Shown here: one piece after another, positions 44,427 to 55,881 of the stretch
How the letters are laid out: the number at the start of each line of letters is the position of its first letter
Position numbering within the stretch: position 1 is the first letter of the stretch
NCBI GenBank assembly: GCA_011364965.1
Contig: RDOB01000002.1
Location: 64,001 to 128,000, forward strand
Direction: 5' to 3'
DNA length: 64,000 nt
Source: Candidatus Heimdallarchaeota archaeon
GTDB taxonomy: Archaea; Asgardarchaeota; Heimdallarchaeia; Hodarchaeales; Hodarchaeaceae
Notes under the pieces: model-generated
Seen by the model: only the letters and a program-made list of their open reading frames with translations
What the model was told of the DNA's origin: nothing
Databases searched by the model: none
Position numbers and translations under genes: made by a program

Positions 44427-46421
44427 TTGTCTTCAGAATATGGTGCAAGCTCAATTCAAGTACTTGAGGGGCTCGAAGCTGTTCGACGGCGTCCTGCCAT
44501 GTATATTGGCAGCATTGATGATTACGGTCTACATCACTTAGTTTGGGAGATCGTTGACAATTCAATCGATGAAGCTATGGCAGGTTTCTGTGATAGAATC
44601 AAAGTAATTCTTGGTCAGACTGAACGAGGACTTGAATCTGTTACAGTTCAAGATAATGGGCGTGGAATTCCTACTGAACCACATCCTCATTATAATATGT
44701 CATCCTTGGAATTGGTTACAACTCGACTTCACTCTGGAGGGAAATTCGATCATTCCTCTTATAAAGTAAGTGGAGGATTGCATGGGGTTGGAATTGCGGT
44801 TGTTAATGCATTATCCAGTTGGATGCAAGTAAAAGTAAAAAGAAATGGTAAAATTTTAATGCAAGAATACGTCCGTGGTGAAACTATTTCTCATGGTTTA
44901 ATCGAAGTGAAGGAAAACTGGGATTACAAGAGTGGTACACATACAACTTTCATCCCAGATCCTGATATATTTGAGACAGTACATTTTGATATAAACCCTA
45001 TTCGAAATCGTCTTAGAGAATTAGCTTTTCTTAATAAAGGCCTCACTATAACTCTTATTGATGAAAGAAAACCTAGAGATGATGATAAGGAGGAATCGAA
45101 ATCAGATATTCCTGATGAAGTTACTGAAGAAACTGAAAAACAAAACCGATGGATTTTTCACTATGATGGAGGAATAAAAGCTTATGTAGAACAGCTCGCC
45201 ACGAATCGCTTACATGAAGACTTACCTTATTTTGATGAGACAATAGAAACTACACAAGTTGAAGTTTCTCTTGCATACGATAATTCCGAACGCGATCTAA
45301 TCTATACATTTACAAATAACATTAATACACGTCATGGGGGAACTCATTTATCTGGATTTAAATCGGGTTTAACAAGAGCGATTAATTCTTATGCTTTGAA
45401 AAATGACCAATTAGTTAAAAATTCTCATTTAAAAAAGGAGCTTAAAGATAAAAGAAGTATATTTACTGGGAATGATGTTAGAGAGGGATTAGTTGCTGTT
45501 GTTTCTGTCAAAGTAATAAATCCACAATTTGAAGGACAAACTAAAACTAAGTTAGGAAATAGTGAAGTGAAAGGAGCAGTAGAAAGCTGTTCCTATGAGA
45601 ATATCTTGAAATTCCTTGAAGAACATCCATTAAGCGCTAAAGCAATAATCGAAAAATGCGAAGCTGCAGCTACATTAAGAATGAAGTATCGACAACTTCG
45701 TGATGCGGTACGAAAAACTCAAGTTAAAGGTACTGGGAAATTAGTTGATTGTGCTGTTACTGATCCTGCTCAAAGAGAGTTATTTTTAGTGGAGGGCGAT
45801 TCTGCTGGAGGAAGCGCAATTGAAGGCCGATTTAGCGAGTTTCAAGCGATCCTTCCTCTTCGTGGAAAAGTAATTAATGTAGAAAAAGCTAGATTAGAGA
45901 AAGCGATGAGAAATAAAGAAATTTTGGAAATTATTCGCGCGGTGGGAGGAGGATATAGGGAAAATTTTCAAATAGAAAATGTACGTTATCATAAAGTGAT
46001 TTTATTGATGGATGCGGATATTGATGGTCATCATATTGTTTGTTTATTACTTACATTTTTCTTCCGTTATATGCCCGAGCTTATTGACGAAGGTTATTTG
46101 TACATCGCTCAACCTCCATTATTCCGACTGAAAAAGGGAAATAAAGAAGTATATGTGCTTTCAGAGAAAGAAAAAAATGAAATCACAACAGAATGGGGAA
46201 GTAGGGTTGAAATTAGTCGATTCAAGGGACTCGGAGAAATGAATCCTATTCAATTAAGAAATACTGTAATGGATCCCAGTAATCGAACTCTTCTCCAAGT
46301 TACTAGGGAAAATATCATTGACGCAGAACACATATTTAAAACATTAATGGGCGATGAAGTTGCACCTAGAAGGGAGTTCATCGAATCACATGCCTTAGAG
46401 GCGGAAAATCTAGACTTTTAA
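44427..46421 (+). CDS. gyrB: DNA gyrase subunit B
   Basis: LEAVRRRPAMYIG, EIVDNSIDE, DNGRGIP, GGLHGVG, PQFEGQTK, EGDSAGG, PLRGK, DADIDG, RFKGLGEM. Confidence 0.97.
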   Translation: MSSEYGASSIQVLEGLEAVRRRPAMYIGSIDDYGLHHLVWEIVDNSIDEAMAGFCDRIKVILGQTERGLESVTVQDNGRGIPTEPHPHYNMSSLELVTTRLHSGGKFDHSSYKVSGGLHGVGIAVVNALSSWMQVKVKRNGKILMQEYVRGETISHGLIEVKENWDYKSGTHTTFIPDPDIFETVHFDINPIRNRLRELAFLNKGLTITLIDERKPRDDDKEESKSDIPDEVTEETEKQNRWIFHYDGGIKAYVEQLATNRLHEDLPYFDETIETTQVEVSLAYDNSERDLIYTFTNNINTRHGGTHLSGFKSGLTRAINSYALKNDQLVKNSHLKKELKDKRSIFTGNDVREGLVAVVSVKVINPQFEGQTKTKLGNSEVKGAVESCSYENILKFLEEHPLSAKAIIEKCEAAATLRMKYRQLRDAVRKTQVKGTGKLVDCAVTDPAQRELFLVEGDSAGGSAIEGRFSEFQAILPLRGKVINVEKARLEKAMRNKEILEIIRAVGGGYRENFQIENVRYHKVILLMDADIDGHHIVCLLLTFFFRYMPELIDEGYLYIAQPPLFRLKKGNKEVYVLSEKEKNEITTEWGSRVEISRFKGLGEMNPIQLRNTVMDPSNRTLLQVTRENIIDAEHIFKTLMGDEVAPRREFIESHALEAENLDF

Positions 46422-46426
46422 TAAAA

Positions 46427-48940
46427 TTGGTTGAGAATAACATGAGTAGCAATATTAAAATTACTCCTATTGAAAAAACAATGTCAAAAAGCTATTTAGA
46501 GTATTCGATGTCAGTTATAACTAGTAGAGCCTTGCCCCACGTTCGAGATGGACTAAAACCAGTTCATCGACGAATTTTCTGGGCTATGCATAATTTGGGT
46601 TTGGTTCATTCGAAACCACCAAGAAAGTGCGCTCGTACAATAGGAGAGACACATGCTAAATATCACCCACATGGAGAAACAGCAGTTTATGATGCATTAG
46701 TGCGAATGGCCCAACCTTTTTCATTAAGATATCCATTAATCGAGGGTCAGGGAAATTTTGGAAGCATGGATGGACAACCTCCTGCTGCCCAACGGTATAC
46801 TGAAGCAAGAATGCAGGAAATTGCTGGTGAATTGTTAAAAGATATCGAAAAAGAAACTGTTGACTTTGTTGATAATTTTGACGGTTTAGATAAAGAACCA
46901 GTGGTCTTACCTGCTAGAATTCCAAATCTATTAATTAATGGAGTGATGGGGATTGCAGTAGGTATGGCAACATCAATGCCTCCCCATAATCTGAGTGAGA
47001 TCTTAAATGGTGTAATTGCAACAATTAAAAATCCTGATATCACGATTAAAGAGTTGATGAATCACATACCTGGTCCAGACTTTCCTACTGGAGGGGTTAT
47101 TTATGGTACAGCTGGGATAAAAGAGGCCTATCATACAGGCACTGGAAGTGTAATTCTCCGAGCTAAGTATGAAATTGTCGAGACCAAATCAAAAACCCAA
47201 ATTATAGTAACTGAAGTTCCTTATCTTGTTAAACGTCAAGATACGATTGAACAGAGAGGATTGGTCGATGTAGTACAAAAATTAAAGGATGATGGAAAAT
47301 TTCCTGAACTTGGGAAGATTAAAAATGAATCGAATATCATTCATGGTACTAGAATAGTAATCAACGTAAAACAAACTGCTAATTTAGATATTGTCCTCAA
47401 TCAATTATTTAAATATACGCCAATGCAGACATCCTATTCTATCAGAAATATGGTTCTTGTTGATGAGCGTGTAGGGGATGAGATAAAGTTTAGGCCAAAA
47501 AATCTGAATATAAAGGAATTAATAACTCAATTTATTGATCATAGGAAGGAAGTTGTATATCGAAGAACTCAATTTGATTTAAGAAAGGCGCGCGAGAGAG
47601 CTCATATATTAGAAGGGAGAAAAGTAGTTGTGGAAAACATTGATGAGGTAATTCGAATTATACGTGGTTCTGCTACTGGTTCCGATGCTCAAGAAGCATT
47701 AATTGAAAAATATTCATTCACCGAAATACAAGCCAGAGACATTCTTTCTTTACCTCTACGTAGTTTGACACGATTTGATAGAGAAAAGATTATTCAGGAA
47801 TACGAGGAAGTACTTAAGGCGATTCAAGAATACGAGGAAATTTTAGCTAGTGAACAGCGCGTGTTAGATATAATAATCACAGAAACAGAGGAAATAATAA
47901 AGAGATATGGGGATGCTCGTAAAACTGAAATTCTCCGAGATGATTCTGAAGATTTTCAGGATTGGACTGGGAAAACAGAGGAAGATTTTATTACCAAAGA
48001 GGATATTGTAGTTACGTTAACTCAAAATGGTTATATTAAAGCAATCTCTGCTGAAGTATATAACAGCCAAAGAAGAGGAGGGAAGGGGATAAAATCTATG
48101 GAGCTAGGGAAGGATGATTTTTTGCTAGAGATGATAGTTGCTTCAACTCATGATACAATTCTATTCTTTACAACAAGCGGAAAAGTCTACCGAGCTAGAG
48201 GATTTGAAATTCCTCGGTCAAAACAAAGAGTAACCAAGGGTACAAATATTGTAAATCTTTTAAAGATGGAACCAGACGAGGAAATTGAAACATTAATTCC
48301 TATTTCGGATTTTGATGAAACAAAATATTTGATATTAGCAACGAAAAATGGATTGATTAAAAAAACATCATTAACTGATTATTCTAACATTCGAACCACA
48401 GGTATTATTGCAATTCAGCTTCGGGAGGATGATCAAATCGTTGGGGTAAAAATAACAAACGGAAATGATGCAATTATACTAGCAACCGCTGATGGAAAAG
48501 CAATACGATTCCCGGAGAAGGATGTTCGTCCTGTTGGCCGAGGAAGTATTGGAGTTCTTGGCATACGTCTAAATGAAGGAGATTCGGTAGTAGATATAGC
48601 AATTGTTGATGAAACAAAAACTTTACTTACTGTGTGTCAAAACGGATATGGAAAAAGATCTAAATATGACCAATACAGAACAACTCGTCGTAATGGAAAA
48701 GGAATCATTAATATCAAGACTACTGAAAGGAACGGACCTGTTATTGCAGTGAAAAGTGTATCAAATAAAGATCAGCTTCTTATGGTAGCAACTGATGGCA
48801 AATTAATCCAGATTCCAATCAAAGGAATACGAACTATCGGAAGAGCTACTTCTGGAGTTACTCTGATGAAATTAGATTACGAAGAAGGTGTTAGTATTTC
48901 CTCGATTGCTATACTCTCTGATGAGGAAGGTGCTGAATGA
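46427..48940 (+). CDS. gyrA: DNA gyrase subunit A
   Basis: RALPHVRDGLKPVHRR, YHPHG, catalytic AAQRYTE, GPDFPTGG, intact GyrA-box QRRGGKG, beta-pinwheel repeats. Confidence 0.97.
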   Translation: MVENNMSSNIKITPIEKTMSKSYLEYSMSVITSRALPHVRDGLKPVHRRIFWAMHNLGLVHSKPPRKCARTIGETHAKYHPHGETAVYDALVRMAQPFSLRYPLIEGQGNFGSMDGQPPAAQRYTEARMQEIAGELLKDIEKETVDFVDNFDGLDKEPVVLPARIPNLLINGVMGIAVGMATSMPPHNLSEILNGVIATIKNPDITIKELMNHIPGPDFPTGGVIYGTAGIKEAYHTGTGSVILRAKYEIVETKSKTQIIVTEVPYLVKRQDTIEQRGLVDVVQKLKDDGKFPELGKIKNESNIIHGTRIVINVKQTANLDIVLNQLFKYTPMQTSYSIRNMVLVDERVGDEIKFRPKNLNIKELITQFIDHRKEVVYRRTQFDLRKARERAHILEGRKVVVENIDEVIRIIRGSATGSDAQEALIEKYSFTEIQARDILSLPLRSLTRFDREKIIQEYEEVLKAIQEYEEILASEQRVLDIIITETEEIIKRYGDARKTEILRDDSEDFQDWTGKTEEDFITKEDIVVTLTQNGYIKAISAEVYNSQRRGGKGIKSMELGKDDFLLEMIVASTHDTILFFTTSGKVYRARGFEIPRSKQRVTKGTNIVNLLKMEPDEEIETLIPISDFDETKYLILATKNGLIKKTSLTDYSNIRTTGIIAIQLREDDQIVGVKITNGNDAIILATADGKAIRFPEKDVRPVGRGSIGVLGIRLNEGDSVVDIAIVDETKTLLTVCQNGYGKRSKYDQYRTTRRNGKGIINIKTTERNGPVIAVKSVSNKDQLLMVATDGKLIQIPIKGIRTIGRATSGVTLMKLDYEEGVSISSIAILSDEEGAE

Positions 48941-51900
48941 TGACTGACGCTGTTAAATCATCAAAAAAAGGGAAAATAACAAAGGAAAAGGTTGTAAAAA
49001 GATCTGCAGCTGATTTCTTTCAAGATAATAAAGCAATTGCGGGTTTCGACAACACCATGCGTGTAGTTTTCACCAGCGTTAGAGAACTTGTTGAAAATGG
49101 GTTGGATGCTGCAGAAAGAATAGGGAAACTTCCAGAACTTATTATTACAATCTCAAGACTCAAAAAGGAGGAAATTGCAAAGCTATTAAATGTTAGTTCT
49201 TTTGATTCATCAGAGAAACTTGATTTCATTCGACTTACTGTGCGAGATAATGGAAGTGGAGTTCAATCTGAATTTGTGCCTCCTTTATTTGGAAGAGTGT
49301 TGACAGGGAGCAATTATGGCGCTAGACAGTCACGCGGTCGATTTGGTTTAGGTGCCAAAATGGTGTTGCTTAATGCCATGTCCTCCGTTGATTTACCTCT
49401 TATCGTCAAATCGAAACATATGAACGAAGATTTTACTAGTTATCATGAAATTATGATAAATTTAGCCGAAAATGAGCCAATTATTCTCTTGAAACGAGAG
49501 ATCCCTCAAGAAACTCCTGAAGCAATCCCTGAATCAGGGACGGAAGTGAGTGTTACTTTCACTGGTTCTTGGAATTTAGCCTCCCGTTGGATAAGGGAAT
49601 ACTTCTCTCAACTTAGTTTAATAACACCTTACGCAAGGATTCTTGTTACTTATCCTGATAGTGAATCTCCTGAAGAAATGCCCCGAGTAGTTGAGGATAT
49701 GCCTGGTTATCCCCAAATTGCCAAAGTTCATCCTTGGGGAACAGATATAACACAATTTAAACGGGAAATTGCTGTTACTAAAAGTCCAACCGTGGAAGAG
49801 TTTTTACAAGATCATTTTCAAGGGATTGGGAAAAAAACAGCCCAAGAATTTCTTGAGTACGTTAAAATTGATAACACTAAATCGCCACATGACCTTAGTG
49901 CTAGTGATATTCGCCGAATTGTGCATGAAGGTTTTGTTATGCCAGATTCTGACCCTAAAAAGCGCCGAGATCAGAAATATTTCCCTTTCAAAAGGCCATC
50001 TGGGGATTCATTGAGTCCTCTAAGCGCAGAATTACTTGCGAAAGGGATTCAAAAAGAATTGGATCCTCAATTTGTAAGATCAGCAACTGGTGATATTTCT
50101 GCATATTCTGGTCATCCATTTATTGTTGAAGCAGCTTTAGCTTATGGGGGTCCTATACTTTCTAAGGAAGAGGGGAGCAAATCAGGAACACCAAGAATTT
50201 ATAGATATGCAAACCGTATACCATTATTATTCGGAGCAGGTAATGATATTATCACAAAATGCGTTCAAAAAATGAACTGGAGAAACTACAAGATTAACAT
50301 CAATAAAGCTCCAATAGCAATCGTAGTATCTGTTGTTTCATCCAAAATTCCTTTTCCCGAGACAAGTAAAGAATATATCGCTGATGTTGATGAGTTAAGA
50401 AAAGAAATTTACAAAGTGCTGAAGAAACTAGCCCGTGGGCTTGGAACGCACTTAGGAAAAGCTGAGAGGGAACGAAGGGAGAAACAAAGGCAATCTAGAT
50501 TCGAGAGTGCAGCGCCTAAGGTTATAGACAATCTTAGTAAAATTCTTGAGACAACGGATACCCCTTTTCTTCTCAAATCTCCAGAAGAAATAGCTAAATT
50601 AGAAAAAGCTCTTGCTTCTGCAGAAACCAAGCTTATACGTCGAAAATATCCCCCTAGCCCTGCGATTTCCAGTATTGGTGAGTGGTTACCGATGACCACA
50701 TACGCCACATTAGTGGAAAATGGTATACAAACTATTTACCAGTTTTTAAGGGCACCAAACGTTGAATTAATGTCTATTACTGGTTTATCAGAAAAAAGAG
50801 TAGCAGAAATAAAACGTTTAACTGTTACTAGCCAAAATCGTGCTACTCAGTCCCCTTCTCTCCGTGAGTTTGAGATATTTGATAAACGACTAGAAAACGA
50901 CTTTAATAAATATCTCGAGGCACCTAGGATCCATAGAGCTTTAACTAAGCGCTGGTTGGTGTCAGCGCTTGATTTATTTGCTACACCTATTACGCAACTC
51001 CGAATGGTGGAATCATTAGCTGAAAAGTTAATCTACGAATCCAAGATTCAAATGATTAACACTTTAATCGCTGAGAGTACAATACCAGAGATCGAATTCG
51101 ATACACTTCCTTGGATGACAAACGATCTCCAAAAATCTTTAAAATCTGCAAAAATTCACACATTATTTGAATATTTAGCTAGTTTCCCTGAGAAATTGGC
51201 CGATTTACCTTACCTAAATGAAATATTGATTGAAAAAATAAAACAAGAGATACGGGAAGGAATTAAACAAGGATATATTGATGGAGAAAAGGTAATTGGT
51301 GCAGCTACTTTTGAGTGGATGGACTACCGTGTCACACCTAGATTGAGAGGGAGGAAGGTTTCTAAAATTATAGAATTCCTTGAAACATCTAATGAAAAAC
51401 TATCAGAGCTTTCAGAACTGACTGAAAATTTAATTAATAAGTCAAAAGATGAAATCAAACCTCATCTAGCTCGATTCAATGATGAGAATTCATTGAACAC
51501 TCTTCCAGGTATTAATGAAACCATGAAAGCTGATTTTATGCGAGTAGAGGTAATCGGATTCATTGATTACTTATCTAAACCTAATTCGGAACTGGTATTT
51601 GTACGGGGGCTAGTTGATAATCTTATTATTCAGAAACAAGATGAAATTATGGATCAGGTAAGTCAGCAACATGAATTATTCCCAATAAAACACGCTTGGT
51701 GGCTGGATAGAGAGTTAGAGAATAAATTAAAATCAATAGGAATTAATTCAGTTTTTGATTTCGTTCGGTATCCCACCCAACAACTAGCAGAAATAAAAAA
51801 TTTGGATTACCAAACCCTTGAGACCATAAAAAATACTTATGGGACTCCTATACCTTTGATAAACGATCAAGATAAGGTAAAACTAGACAATCAGCAGATA

Positions 51901-54900
51901 ATCTGCCTAGAAGAATTAGAATTTATAGATGATTTCTCAAAAATCAAACCTGAAGAACTCTCGAAGAAATTAAAAGATTTGATGATATATATTCAAGCTC
52001 CAATTTGTTACTTGCCTATTCCAAGTAAATTTTATCAAATTCTTCATCATTTAGGTGTATCTCAAATTTTTGATTTCTTAATCTGGCCTGACCATGATTT
52101 ACACCATAAAGGAGGACTTCCTTACAAATTAATAGAGGAAATCAAAAGTGAAATATCTTTGGACATGATTCAAGACTTAATTAAATCAAAAAGTGTTTTA
52201 GTATCTGCTATTTCAAATAATCTTGACTCAAAATTACTAGATAAAATACCAGCTGATTTTACTTTACAGGAGTTGTATTATAGATTACCATACGCAGATG
52301 ATCGTCTAGCAAACCTTCAGTTAAGTAAGACAGAGATTGAAACTCTTATTGATATTTTTCTTACTCCTATATCAAGGATTCCTTCCATAAAACCCAAATT
52401 TATTAACAAATTAAGAAATATCAGTATAAATACATTTATTGATCTAATAACATGGGAAAGAGAAGTAATTGCTAAAATTATTGGAAGAGATGAGAAATAT
52501 ATTCAATCAATTTTTGAGAATTTTGAACAATTTACTTCTGGAAAACCTCTATTCAATTTAGGAGTTTTTAATCAAACTGAAATCAAAGCGTTAATCTCTC
52601 AAGGATTCAAAACAGTTGAGGATCTTTATTTTCGTGCAAATCATGAAACATTTGGTACTATGGGCGTAAAATGGAAGAAAATTGAAAGATACCAGAGAAT
52701 TCTAGAAACTCCAGTAGCAATGCTTCAAACAAGATCAGAACAAGGTAAAATTTCTCACGATGCGTTGGAAAGATTAGCAGATAATGGTATAGACCAAATA
52801 ATCAAGCTTGTTTATTGGCCAGAGAATGAATTACAATCTATCCTAAAAATACCCGAAAAACGAATTATTGAATTGAAAGATTCTATTGCTATTAAAGAAC
52901 ATGGCATGCCTTTGACCAAGGTGTGTGGGTATAATAAAAAAACTCTGAATACCCTTCTAAGTTACGGTATCGAGACAATTGAGGATCTCTATTTTAGCGC
53001 GTCCGAAGATATGGTTGACGAGGATGATGATATCGAGTGGGATTACGTTAAACAGGCAATTGAAGCACTTGACATACCTATTTCATTTTTAGATGGCATT
53101 ATTGCTACAAAATATATTGAAAAATTACAGGGTAAAAAAATCGACACGATAATACGCTTTTTGATAACATCAGAAGAGGAGCTAAGTGAGATCTTGGGTA
53201 CTCCTATAGACAATGTGGAGAATTTAAGACAGAAAATCAACCTTATTCGTTTTAGGGAATCAACTGAAACTTCTATTTCAATTTTGGAGGGATTAACAAG
53301 AAAACAACTCAGAGTTCTTTCTGAAGAGAATATATCCTCAATTTACGATTTTATAATTGCAAATGACGAATCCTTGGCAAGTATATTAGAGATGGATTTA
53401 GAACAAGTGAGTTCAATGAAAAATAATTTGAATTATGATAGTATTCGCATTATTAAAGAGGAAAAAATGGTTCCTCTAGTCAAGATATCGCTTTTTGATA
53501 AAAGAATCGTAAAGCAGCTAGCACGTATGGGGATTGAAAGTTTAGCTGATCTTTATTATGTAGCTACTCCTAAAACGTTTGAAGAAAGCTCAATAAGTTG
53601 GCAAATGATCCAAGATGCAAGAGCAATACTCGATTTGCCAATAGAAATCATTCCTGAAATCACAAAAAAGGAAATAAATACCTTAAAAAAGGCGAAAATT
53701 AAAATAATATTTGATTTACTCATGGAAAGTCCTGAAGAATTATTTAAAAGAACCAATATAGATGCAGAAACAATTGAATCATTACAGAATTCAATAATTA
53801 TTGATGAACTAATAACAATTCTAAAACGTTTATCAGTAGATAAATTCAATTTTCCTAAAGAGTATTTTGCTGAAATAAAGAAAAATAAGCTTGATTCAGC
53901 TTATGATTTAATTTCTTATGAGAATGAAGATCTTTTTCTCAGTCAAGAAGGAAAGAAAAAAGTAAGAATCGATAAAAATAGTTGGGTGGATGTTTCCTCA
54001 ATCCTATCTATACCTCTTCGTCTTTTTATGAATTTTGAAAATGAAATTATGAAGGGTTTAAAGCGAAAGCGTATTATAAACTTAAGAGATGCATATGCAG
54101 CTTCTGAAGAAAAGTTTGATGGTTTATTTGAGGATGGAGGATTGGATTTCCTGGAAACATTGCGTGTTTTAGATTTTAAAGAAATTAGAGATTTTCTGAG
54201 AATATCAATATGTTTCACACCTCATATCTCTCCTGAATGGCTTTTTTCCTTAATAAACAATTCAATTTATACCATAGAAGACATTTTATCTTGTGAACTA
54301 AGAGATCTTACTAAAATTCTGAATTCTTCTTTACCAAGAACTAGAAACTTCATAAAAGAAATATCTATGAATAGTACATTAAAATGCCTTGAGGAAGAGC
54401 TTATTCCTCTAGATAAACTCTCTTCAATCTTCTCATCAGAAATAATAACCAAATTAGAGAGTATAGGGTATAATTCGTTACAAGACTTTATCATTCGGAT
54501 AACAGATGCTACTGATATCGATGGAGTTTCAGATGTTCTAAAAATCCTTAATTCACCCGTTAATAGATTATCCGATGATATACCCCTTAGCGAAATAAGG
54601 AAACTATCTCAACAAGGAATTTCCACAATTAGAGATTGGTTAATTGTACAAAATTCAGTTATATCAGACATAATTGATATTGAAAAAGACATTATTTACG
54701 AATTAAAGCGTTCATTTGATTTTAAGAGCATAAGTGAAGTTTCAGATGTAGAAACCTCCTTAAATGATTACATTGAGAAAGGGTACATCGATTTTGACGA
54801 ATTAAATAAATTAGGGATTCGTACTATCGAAGATTTGCAATTTATTGAAATAGATACACTCTCTGCTTCAGAAGAATTTTTATCTCGTATAAGATCATTA

Positions 54901-55881
54901 AAAGATGCATTGACCTCCTCACTAGCCTATTATACGCGTCTTCCTCCTGAATATGTTATCCCTTTGGCGTTAAATGGAGTCACATCTGTAGCTCGTCTGA
55001 TTAGAACAGAATACTCTCAAATTGAGAATCCTATAAATATCACAAATGAAAAATATAGTGCAGCAAGAGAAACAGTCAATCTAATTGATATAATTACCCA
55101 TAAGAAAAGTGATTCTGAATTTAGAGTTCGGTTATCATCTCTTAAAGCCTTTACTTCAAAACAGCTTGAACAGATTCAGAAACTTGGCTATGATAATGTG
55201 ATAGACCTTTATTTCATGCTTGATACCGAACAGGTACCTAAGTCTTTAGTAGGGTCAATCGAATCAACAAAAACAGTTTTAGAAAAACCCCTAGCTCTAC
55301 TTCCCTCGGTTCAAGAGGCATTTCCTCAAAAGATACCTCTTCTTCACAATGCTGGAATAACCTCGATAATTGAATTCTTATTCTGGCCAAAAGACGAATT
55401 GGCTGAGCTTCTTGAAATAAAACGATATGAATTGTCGCGCTATAGAAAAATCGACATTGGAGCTCTTAGGAGAAAGAGAAACTTGGGAACACCAATAGAA
55501 AACTTCCCAAGAATTCCAGAAGAGCTTATTGAGACTTTTAAACAGATAGGAGTAGATAATATAGAAGATTTATATTTTCTTTTTACAAAATATCCTAATT
55601 TAATACCAGATGATGTTATCCCAAGAAAAATCATAACTACATGTATCAATGACCTCGAGAGCCCCGTTGTTAAATTACATGGACTACCCATACCAGTGGC
55701 ACAAGAATTAGTAAAAAAAGGGATCACTAGAATCATTGATTTCTTATATTGGCCTATGGACGACCTAAAACCTGTTTATGGTTTATCAGAGGCGAAAATT
55801 AAAAAAATAAAGGACTCAATTAGATTGAGGGAGAAATCTGACGTTGTTGGTAGACTAGACTCTTACATGAGGCAGGATTGA
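48937..55881 (+). CDS. top6B: DNA topoisomerase VI subunit B with ~1750-aa C-terminal HhH-repeat extension
   Basis: FFQDN..IAGF, RELVENGLDA, DNGSG, FGRVLTGS, QSRGRFGLG, H2TH FQGIGKKTA, transducer RYANRIPLLF and KIPFPETSKEYIA; repeats follow from about residue 570. Confidence 0.93.
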   Translation: MMTDAVKSSKKGKITKEKVVKRSAADFFQDNKAIAGFDNTMRVVFTSVRELVENGLDAAERIGKLPELIITISRLKKEEIAKLLNVSSFDSSEKLDFIRLTVRDNGSGVQSEFVPPLFGRVLTGSNYGARQSRGRFGLGAKMVLLNAMSSVDLPLIVKSKHMNEDFTSYHEIMINLAENEPIILLKREIPQETPEAIPESGTEVSVTFTGSWNLASRWIREYFSQLSLITPYARILVTYPDSESPEEMPRVVEDMPGYPQIAKVHPWGTDITQFKREIAVTKSPTVEEFLQDHFQGIGKKTAQEFLEYVKIDNTKSPHDLSASDIRRIVHEGFVMPDSDPKKRRDQKYFPFKRPSGDSLSPLSAELLAKGIQKELDPQFVRSATGDISAYSGHPFIVEAALAYGGPILSKEEGSKSGTPRIYRYANRIPLLFGAGNDIITKCVQKMNWRNYKININKAPIAIVVSVVSSKIPFPETSKEYIADVDELRKEIYKVLKKLARGLGTHLGKAERERREKQRQSRFESAAPKVIDNLSKILETTDTPFLLKSPEEIAKLEKALASAETKLIRRKYPPSPAISSIGEWLPMTTYATLVENGIQTIYQFLRAPNVELMSITGLSEKRVAEIKRLTVTSQNRATQSPSLREFEIFDKRLENDFNKYLEAPRIHRALTKRWLVSALDLFATPITQLRMVESLAEKLIYESKIQMINTLIAESTIPEIEFDTLPWMTNDLQKSLKSAKIHTLFEYLASFPEKLADLPYLNEILIEKIKQEIREGIKQGYIDGEKVIGAATFEWMDYRVTPRLRGRKVSKIIEFLETSNEKLSELSELTENLINKSKDEIKPHLARFNDENSLNTLPGINETMKADFMRVEVIGFIDYLSKPNSELVFVRGLVDNLIIQKQDEIMDQVSQQHELFPIKHAWWLDRELENKLKSIGINSVFDFVRYPTQQLAEIKNLDYQTLETIKNTYGTPIPLINDQDKVKLDNQQIICLEELEFIDDFSKIKPEELSKKLKDLMIYIQAPICYLPIPSKFYQILHHLGVSQIFDFLIWPDHDLHHKGGLPYKLIEEIKSEISLDMIQDLIKSKSVLVSAISNNLDSKLLDKIPADFTLQELYYRLPYADDRLANLQLSKTEIETLIDIFLTPISRIPSIKPKFINKLRNISINTFIDLITWEREVIAKIIGRDEKYIQSIFENFEQFTSGKPLFNLGVFNQTEIKALISQGFKTVEDLYFRANHETFGTMGVKWKKIERYQRILETPVAMLQTRSEQGKISHDALERLADNGIDQIIKLVYWPENELQSILKIPEKRIIELKDSIAIKEHGMPLTKVCGYNKKTLNTLLSYGIETIEDLYFSASEDMVDEDDDIEWDYVKQAIEALDIPISFLDGIIATKYIEKLQGKKIDTIIRFLITSEEELSEILGTPIDNVENLRQKINLIRFRESTETSISILEGLTRKQLRVLSEENISSIYDFIIANDESLASILEMDLEQVSSMKNNLNYDSIRIIKEEKMVPLVKISLFDKRIVKQLARMGIESLADLYYVATPKTFEESSISWQMIQDARAILDLPIEIIPEITKKEINTLKKAKIKIIFDLLMESPEELFKRTNIDAETIESLQNSIIIDELITILKRLSVDKFNFPKEYFAEIKKNKLDSAYDLISYENEDLFLSQEGKKKVRIDKNSWVDVSSILSIPLRLFMNFENEIMKGLKRKRIINLRDAYAASEEKFDGLFEDGGLDFLETLRVLDFKEIRDFLRISICFTPHISPEWLFSLINNSIYTIEDILSCELRDLTKILNSSLPRTRNFIKEISMNSTLKCLEEELIPLDKLSSIFSSEIITKLESIGYNSLQDFIIRITDATDIDGVSDVLKILNSPVNRLSDDIPLSEIRKLSQQGISTIRDWLIVQNSVISDIIDIEKDIIYELKRSFDFKSISEVSDVETSLNDYIEKGYIDFDELNKLGIRTIEDLQFIEIDTLSASEEFLSRIRSLKDALTSSLAYYTRLPPEYVIPLALNGVTSVARLIRTEYSQIENPINITNEKYSAARETVNLIDIITHKKSDSEFRVRLSSLKAFTSKQLEQIQKLGYDNVIDLYFMLDTEQVPKSLVGSIESTKTVLEKPLALLPSVQEAFPQKIPLLHNAGITSIIEFLFWPKDELAELLEIKRYELSRYRKIDIGALRRKRNLGTPIENFPRIPEELIETFKQIGVDNIEDLYFLFTKYPNLIPDDVIPRKIITTCINDLESPVVKLHGLPIPVAQELVKKGITRIIDFLYWPMDDLKPVYGLSEAKIKKIKDSIRLREKSDVVGRLDSYMRQD
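50650..55850 (+). repeat. About 28 degenerate tandem HhH/RadA-N-like protein modules in Top6B
   Basis: Recurring 'P[IL]..[LI].......L...GI.[TS][IV].[DE][FL]L' units, e.g. LVENGIQTIYQFL, LKSIGINSVFDFV, LLSYGIETIEDLYF, LHNAGITSIIEFL, LVKKGITRIIDFL; counted by eye. Confidence 0.8.

Follow-up and report, generated by a model that had tools for sequence, protein, structure and literature searches.

In the Candidatus Heimdallarchaeota archaeon studied here (assembly GCA_011364965.1), the gene for the B subunit of topoisomerase VI (top6B) encodes a giant protein, about four times as large as is normal for this subunit. The gene lies in a stretch of 64,000 nucleotides of contig RDOB01000002.1 (positions 64,001 to 128,000 of the forward strand; hereafter the window), where it occupies positions 48937-55881 of the plus strand as a single uninterrupted frame of 2314 codons without an internal stop. 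The product is almost certainly the organism's sole, working topoisomerase VI B subunit, with a transducer that runs straight into a fixed and ancient arm of about 28 domains of the helix-hairpin-helix (HhH)2 fold, of the type found in the RadA N-terminal domain (NTD), the C-terminal domain of the RNA polymerase alpha subunit (alpha-CTD) and the acidic repeats of NusA (NusA-AR).

The catalytic part has the features of a canonical Top6B. Residues 13-558 match the equivalog model NF003218 (PRK04184) with 442.5 bits against a cut-off of 274; the TIGR01052 score is 353, under the cut-off of 380.7 for that model. The transducer (Topo-VIb_trans, PF09239) is recognized at residues 354-518 with an E-value of 1.8e-51. 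Canonical B subunits align end to end, namely those of S. shibatae (2zbk_B, 530 aa; E 1.9e-80, residues 15-556 of the protein described here) and of M. mazei (2q2e_B, 621 aa with an Ig-like CTD; E 1e-63), and they share the same GHKL/H2TH/transducer core, ATP motifs and switch lysine, as well as a neighboring top6A gene. The N-box, G1 and G2 motifs of the GHKL ATP-binding site are kept (RELVENGLDA, DNGSGV and GRFGLGAK, compared with RELIENSLDA, DNGIGI and GMYGLGVK in 2zbk_B), as is the switch lysine, the K of ETSKEY aligning with the K of SAGKES in 2zbk_B. The WKxY motif carries a K-to-R exchange (WRNY here, WKRY in 2zbk_B). The core has an isoelectric point (pI) of 9.1. A single Top6B and a single Top6A were found in the genome, which is 87% complete. 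What sets the protein apart from canonical Top6B is the 1754 extra residues that follow the transducer. An initial annotation of the window, made by a model from the nucleotide letters, had described an intact GHKL-H2TH-transducer core in frame with a long tail, and the PRK04184 and PF09239 matches and the 2zbk_B alignment agree with that description.

Modules of the repeat arm

An iterated hidden Markov model (HMM) built from this protein alone detected 23 copies of a 42-aa unit between residues 584 and 2291. Retrained on 12 orthologues, the model gave 26 matches, one of them doubtful, and three further degenerate copies recognized by eye (residues ~847-906, 964-1023 and 1085-1144) fill gaps of ~60 aa. 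The total is thus about 28 modules (25 by HMM and three by eye) with a mean spacing of 61.6 aa, in agreement with the number of tandem modules first proposed for this gene. The alignment of 26 modules follows the pattern P-h-x-x-h ... L-x-x-x-G-I-x-T-I-x-D-h-h ... E-L-x-x-I-x-x-h ... I, and from about residue 1085 onward modules of an 'IxDFLxWP' type frequently alternate with modules of an 'EDLYF' type. Tandem Repeats Finder reported no DNA-level repeat across the arm; the repeats are therefore old and visible in the protein only.

Profile searches and structure prediction agree on the fold of the unit. In Pfam the arm unit exceeds the cut-offs of RAD51D_N (111.2 bits, cut-off 27.3), HHH_5 (65.5 bits, cut-off 27) and RNA_pol_A_CTD (36.8 bits, cut-off 23.8), and no inteins, zinc fingers or other known domains appeared in the Pfam scans. 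When the module profile was compared with PDB sequences, the best matches were the NusA acidic repeats (E 4e-6) and the RNA polymerase alpha-CTD (E 4.6e-6), followed by weaker ones to DNA polymerase IV of the Dpo4 type (8.5e-4), RadA (6e-3) and RAD51D (0.015). An AlphaFold2 model of residues 1136-1700, computed with the 12 orthologues as alignment, reached a predicted local distance difference test (pLDDT) score of 78 and a predicted TM-score (pTM) of 0.57, and consists of nine consecutive modules of four to five helices. Structural placement with a strong score concerns a single module (residues 1566-1621, residues 431-486 of the model), which superposes on the N-terminal domains of RAD51D, RAD51C, RadA, Dmc1 and RAD51 with Z-scores of 8-9.3 and a root mean square deviation (rmsd) of 1.2-1.4 Å over 54-55 residues. 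The best superposition was obtained with the N-terminal domain of RAD51D (Z 9.3, rmsd 1.3 Å), and the solved domains 8faz_D, 2bke and 8gj9_A match at Z 8.3-9.3 and rmsd 1.2-1.8 Å, the whole small domain being covered. A model of residues 540-1135 was poor (pLDDT 61, with long stretches below 50) and is left out of the claims on fold.

Given the profile matches and the superposition, the modules of the arm are, by profile and predicted structure, (HhH)2-fold domains of the RadA-NTD, alpha-CTD and NusA-AR type, so that a likeness to (HhH)2, RadA/Rad51 N-terminal and NusA-AR units, noticed earlier from the letters, now extends to both sequence profile and fold. The RadA/RAD51 NTD, the alpha-CTD and NusA AR1/AR2 have the same single-module fold and give significant profile matches; recombinases or transcription proteins, however, carry them singly or in pairs, whereas here about 28 stand in tandem on a type IIB topoisomerase.

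Conservation and distribution of the arm

The full-length frame is present in 14 other genomes of the genus, among them the single-contig chromosome CP070695.1, with 2312-2346 aa, 58-63% identity and always a position between gyrA and top6A. Public sequence collections contain another 28 protein clusters of 2240-2330 aa that bear the name 'DNA topoisomerase VI subunit B' and are assigned to Hodarchaeales or Hodarchaeum mangrovi. Twelve aligned orthologues are colinear almost without indels, and identity per 50-residue window amounts to 72-96% in the core and 38-77% in the tail; between modules within one protein it is 8-33%.

Split forms of the gene were also encountered. In a JGI metagenome contig of a Hodarchaeales relative (L022:3854-10758), a frameshift near residues 681-698, with ~16 residues lost, leaves a 716-aa core open reading frame (ORF) and a 1585-aa tail ORF, both otherwise intact. 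Another database record is split into 1202 and 1116 aa, and two scaffold-level 'chromosome' records carry top6B in pieces. A tail encoded as a separate gene in close relatives, which the initial annotation had named as grounds for giving up its reading, thus occurs sporadically but is not the rule; since the breaks lie at different positions, the splits do not represent a conserved two-gene architecture, and a separate tail gene was rejected as the normal state. The same split records speak for a chimeric assembly of Top6B with an unrelated repeat protein, or for a tail that is a pseudogene remnant, but this is vanishingly improbable and in practice refuted by the comparative data: the frame is uninterrupted and its flanks are conserved in the 14 other genomes, the 28 database clusters have comparable lengths, the tail is conserved window by window almost without indels, and the split positions differ while the pieces sum to the full length. 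The join between core and tail near position 50600, which had been singled out as a possible chimera, is therefore real.

The lengths of Top6B were surveyed in 161 Asgard genomes with the transducer model. Giant open frames, about 2312-2342 aa in the genus of this archaeon (group f1), were found in group f3 (3338-4305 aa, with 4185 aa in Ca. Heimdallarchaeum aukensis and 4305 aa in Ca. Heimdallarchaeum endolithica), group f5 (2258-3587 aa), group f6 (4244 aa, reaching the contig end) and group f7 (2532-2820 aa, cut at contig ends), as well as, outside the class, in Ca. Borrarchaeum (group f20, 2286-2293 aa). Group f4 encodes a Top6B of about 1118-1123 aa and a second, plain copy of about 500-512 aa. 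All other listed frames measure ~500-830 aa, save a few contig-cut fragments, in line with the usual ~470-800 aa quoted in the initial annotation.

The distant giants carry the same arm unit and are colinear with the protein described here up to about residue 1600-2100, with 27-34% identity (Heimdallarchaeum-type, Borrarchaeum and f7). The arms of Heimdallarchaeum Top6B (4185-4305 aa) and Borrarchaeum Top6B (2293 aa) are homologous to this one and colinear over the first ~1600 residues, but length, module number and charge differ among the Asgard relatives. An exhaustive search of 1.84 billion representative proteins returned 45 tail matches, consisting of giants (up to 4341 aa) and fragments, and those that could be placed are archaeal giants or fragments of them. 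Because orthologues and distant giants are colinear, each module is individually conserved and the copy number without drift. A recently expanding repeat was considered and rejected, copy number and order being fixed in the genus and colinear across families. The colinearity of the distant giants, together with the 45 matches among 1.84 billion proteins, indicates at the level of sequence that the arm is ancient, positionally conserved and confined to this Top6B lineage. A relevance to the evolution of Top6BL/Spo11 accessory factors, also raised when the gene was first noticed, finds no backing in this set of matches and is speculation.

Two further arrangements were observed among the Asgard genomes. 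The f4 genomes hold two topoisomerase VI sets, one of a 1118-aa Top6B and a 402-aa Top6A, the other of a plain ~500-aa Top6B and a 382-aa Top6A (L015:2577-5933 and L018:2145-3641, both on the minus strand). Group f11 has a Top6A paralogue of 658-954 aa that begins with ~600 aa of canonical HhH units in an array (HHH_5, 311 bits in seven stretches); at one locus a 950-aa Top6A (L023:2778-5630, minus strand) adjoins a 645-aa Top6B (L023:5630-7567, minus strand), and the ESM Atlas cluster for this HhH-Top6A form is mostly from Thorarchaeota. The f11 array differs from the arm described here in being canonical HHH_5 and in its place on the other subunit.

Gene cluster and feature coordinates

The genes gyrB, gyrA, top6B and top6A are encoded head to tail on one strand between positions 44427 and 57296 of the window. 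The junctions are tight: 5 nt separate gyrB from gyrA, gyrA and top6B overlap in ATGA, and top6B and top6A either overlap in TTGA or stand 5 nt apart; the likely start of top6A is the ATG at 55887, 6 nt past the TTG that overlaps the TGA of top6B. The order gyrA-top6B-top6A is common to all 11 orthologous loci fetched (L002-L012), and gyrB-gyrA-top6B-top6A recurs in the metagenome contig L022. The coordinates are collected in the table.

Features of the topoisomerase cluster in the window and of the top6B and top6A products
Feature	Window position	Strand	Residues	Description
gyrB	44427..46421	+		upstream of gyrA; Pfam scan
gyrA	46427..48940	+		directly upstream of top6B; Pfam scan
top6B	48937..55881	+	2314 aa	start codon ATG and gyrA stop share bases (ATGA), as do the TGA stop and a possible TTG start of top6A
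Top6B core	48973..50610	+	13-558	GHKL ATPase, H2TH, transducer with switch lysine
Repeat arm	50650..55839	+	572-2301	about 28 (HhH)2-fold modules of ~60 aa each; repeat HMMs, stacked modules, AlphaFold2, superposition
Strongly acidic module	52894..53073	+	1320-1379	net charge -9 to -12 in 12 of 12 orthologues; 71% identity
Last module	55660..55839	+	2242-2301	sole strongly basic module, +5 to +10 in 12 of 12 orthologues; GLSEAK second hairpin kept
C-terminal tail	55840..55878	+	2302-2314	basic patch, then [VL]G[RQ]L[DE]xYM near the end; 12 orthologues
top6A (partner subunit)	55878..57296	+		TOP6A-Spo11_Toprim, E 2.1e-62; TP6A_N, E 4.1e-18 (Pfam)
Top6A N-terminal extension	55878-56160		1-95	~95 aa

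The N-terminal extension of Top6A is present wherever Top6B is giant, that is, in f1, f3, f5 and Borrarchaeum (ORFs of 469-483 aa), and absent from the 402-aa partner of the 1118-aa Top6B of f4 and from the plain 382-aa paralogue. This co-occurrence in the sequences concerns few, related lineages and can serve as a lead only. A complex prediction for Top6B residues 556-850 with the N-terminal 124 residues of Top6A, with alignments as input, scored 0.00 and weighs neither way.

Between positions 50500 and 55500 of the window, the G+C content drops from ~0.39 in the part encoding the Top6B core to 0.30-0.34 in that encoding the tail, which is consistent with the Ile/Lys/Asn/Glu-rich composition of the repeats; beside this drop, no other sign of a foreign origin was seen in these 5 kb.

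Possible roles of the arm

The tail is acidic (net charge -51, pI 5.1), as it is in 12 of 12 orthologues (pI 5.1-6.0), judged by net charge only. Canonical G-h-G hairpins (G[ILVMFY]G) are absent from its 1754 residues, and the orthologous tails contain between none and two per ~1750 residues. Of 26 modules, 15 retain the hairpin-1 glycine; the hairpin-2 glycine is retained by 7 of 25, and the column equivalent to alpha-CTD R265 is basic in nine modules and acidic in ten. What the modules share are the hydrophobic positions of the fold core; surface and DNA-contact positions are not shared. Charge is instead specific to each module and kept across orthologues, as seen in residues 1441-1500 (-5 to -8), in the strongly acidic module at residues 1320-1379 and in the basic last module. 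The C-terminal basic patch reads VRLRRK in most orthologues, and the motif that follows it has hydrophobic and aromatic residues in a spacing like that of a PIP-box, which makes it, as a lead from its sequence pattern, a candidate docking site for PCNA.

The reading we favor, tentatively and short of an even chance, is that the arm acts as a long-reach tether or scaffold rather than as a uniform DNA-binding tail. It is suggested by the combination of an intact core in what are the sole Top6B and Top6A found in the genome with an arm that is conserved module by module, in fixed copy number, with module-specific conserved charge and a conserved C-terminal motif. Furthermore, the best sequence relatives of the tail include the NusA acidic repeats, which are protein-binding (HhH)2 domains. 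In the holoenzyme structures 2q2e and 2zbk we take the end of the B transducer to sit beside the A subunit; on this geometry, an A2B2 enzyme would extend two arms from a position next to the DNA gate. The majority of modules, being neutral or acidic, would mainly provide length, shape and specific docking surfaces, while the basic last module and the conserved C-terminal motif may attach the tip to DNA or to a partner bound to DNA, for example the sliding clamp. Such anchoring could keep topoisomerase VI near certain sites or substrates, such as the crossings and catenanes in the wake of replication forks, in a cell whose gyrase is encoded in the same cluster. Villain et al. (2022) describe lineage-specific C-terminal extensions of Top6B in archaea that encode gyrase and adopt Corbett's idea that such domains sequester or specialize topoisomerase VI (PMC9348778); a tether or scaffold fits this idea for archaea that acquired gyrase.

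Several observations weigh against a tether. Acidity is not universal among the relatives: the tails of the Heimdallarchaeum type (f3) are mildly basic, with a pI of 8.6-9.1, and the f4 Top6B tail is short and basic (pI 9.3), with five G-h-G hairpins and strong HHH_5 matches. At the C-terminus, the PIP-box pattern Qxx[LIVM]xx[FYW][FYW] was not matched, VGRLDSYM having neither the Gln nor the second aromatic residue; in four orthologues, which read LGQLDSYM, a Q is present but out of register. How the modules are arranged relative to one another is uncertain in the AlphaFold2 model that reached a pTM of 0.57, and the five models span pLDDT values of 51-78. Moreover, the HhH array of topoisomerase V, the sole such topoisomerase fusion with a solved complex, binds DNA (PMC9489208). 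The f4 tail and the f11 Top6A array are basic or canonical HhH. In 2q2e and 2zbk, the N-terminus of Top6A and the C-terminus of Top6B presumably adjoin; the HhH arrays of the Top6B tail and of the f11 Top6A would then occupy one and the same corner of the enzyme, next to the DNA gate. A DNA-binding origin of the arm, with some DNA binding retained along it, is therefore plausible.

The same observations bear on a different reading, in which the arm is a distributed array that binds or wraps DNA, many modules touching the DNA backbone as in the (HhH)2 loop of topoisomerase V or the CTD of GyrA. Such an array would make the enzyme more processive, bend the G-segment or wrap it, or favor crossings by bridging two duplexes. 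The (HhH)2 fold of the modules, the basic, hairpin-bearing f4 Top6B tail and the canonical HhH array of f11 Top6A at the adjoining terminus all speak for it, and domains of the alpha-CTD type can bind DNA without G-h-G hairpins. The nearest parallel is Methanopyrus kandleri topoisomerase V, a type IC enzyme whose 12 tandem (HhH)2 domains (PDB 8df9) have a positively charged, DNA-facing interior, wrap DNA inside a loop, act as a processivity factor and include three AP-lyase sites (PMC9489208). The likeness is one of layout, in that a long array of tandem (HhH)2-type domains follows the topoisomerase; the catalytic domain is unrelated, and the array described here, with more than twice the length, is acidic and has no canonical hairpins. 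A Foldseek search with the multi-domain model of 565 residues gave no match at E <= 0.001; 8df9_B was the top row (E 0.053, TM-score 0.10), and topoisomerase V was not among the 68 PDB sequences matched by the module profile at E <= 1. Archaeal type IA topoisomerases with C-terminal HhH repeats (PRK14973) likewise carry an appended HHH_5 array and match the tail weakly (E 1.3e-7), but belong to a different enzyme class and have a much shorter array; clusters combining Topoisom_bac with HHH_5 were also among the ESM Atlas shape neighbors, with TM-scores of 0.27-0.29 that make them leads only. The acidity of all 12 orthologous tails, the near absence of G-h-G hairpins, the loss of the hairpin-2 glycine from most modules, an R265-equivalent column that is as often acidic as basic and the strong, conserved acidity of several modules speak against DNA contacts throughout, and in a redundant, non-specific array the number of copies should vary, whereas here it is fixed. 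On balance, DNA binding distributed over the arm is unlikely, though it has to be reckoned with. From the topoisomerase V-like arm proposed in the initial annotation, the tandem (HhH)2 modules stand, in more copies than the 12 of topoisomerase V; an arm that binds or wraps DNA along its whole length and has AP-lyase activity is not supported in that form.

A role of the arm as a hub for many protein partners is, in our estimate, distinctly unlikely. Here each module would bind a protein of its own, much as NusA AR1/AR2 do, and the arm would assemble a topology-management complex rather than contact DNA; candidate partners are chromatin proteins, parts of the replisome and the co-encoded gyrase. 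The top matches among PDB sequences (NusA acidic repeats and alpha-CTD), the module-specific surfaces conserved across species, the tight packing of gyrB, gyrA, top6B and top6A in one direction and the co-occurrence of the Top6A N-terminal extension with giant tails all accord with such a hub. The partners are, however, candidates only, similarity in fold and profile is not proof of function, and the Top6A co-occurrence concerns few and related lineages. The hub also overlaps with the tether or scaffold, the main difference being the number of modules that act as binding sites.

A more far-reaching elaboration of the tether is a long shot. Topoisomerase VI of the Heimdall group would then be a long-armed machine whose two arms of 1750-3700 residues reach tens of nanometers from the DNA gate and, with their basic tips anchored on a second duplex or a sliding clamp, let the enzyme capture DNA crossings, or be delivered to them, in an SMC-like or tethered manner. 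This design and the Top6A N-terminal extension would already have been present in the archaeal lineage nearest to eukaryotes, and separate accessory proteins such as BIN4/RHL1 of plant topoisomerase VI would later have taken over the role.

Full-text literature searches found no description of a Top6B with an HhH tail. Papers on the evolution of topoisomerase VI report additional helices or a globular extension at the C-terminus of Asgard Top6B and no HhH array or size of thousands of residues (PMC9665070, PMC11302465, PMC9348778, PMC12680538, PMC8185306), and Villain et al. mention just a globular Asgard C-terminal extension (PMC9348778). In gyrase-encoding Euryarchaeota the extension is an Ig-like domain of ~100 aa, compared with the (HhH)2-fold modules found here (PMC9348778, PMC11302465). 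GenBank carries the sequences under the automatic name 'DNA topoisomerase VI subunit B'.

C-terminal domains of modest size, such as the CTDs of GyrA and topoisomerase II or the Ig-like domain of M. mazei Top6B, are what usually tunes type II topoisomerases. In an entire group of archaea, by comparison, the sole topoisomerase VI bears an arm that outsizes its core by a factor of three to seven and is conserved module by module. The Hodarchaeales, to which this archaeon belongs, have reportedly been proposed in some studies as the closest relatives of eukaryotes. The arm shows that in nature folded (HhH)2 domains can form a very long array from which the canonical signature of DNA binding has been lost; it implies a so far undescribed way of targeting or regulating topoisomerase VI, and may divide labor with the gyrase encoded just upstream.

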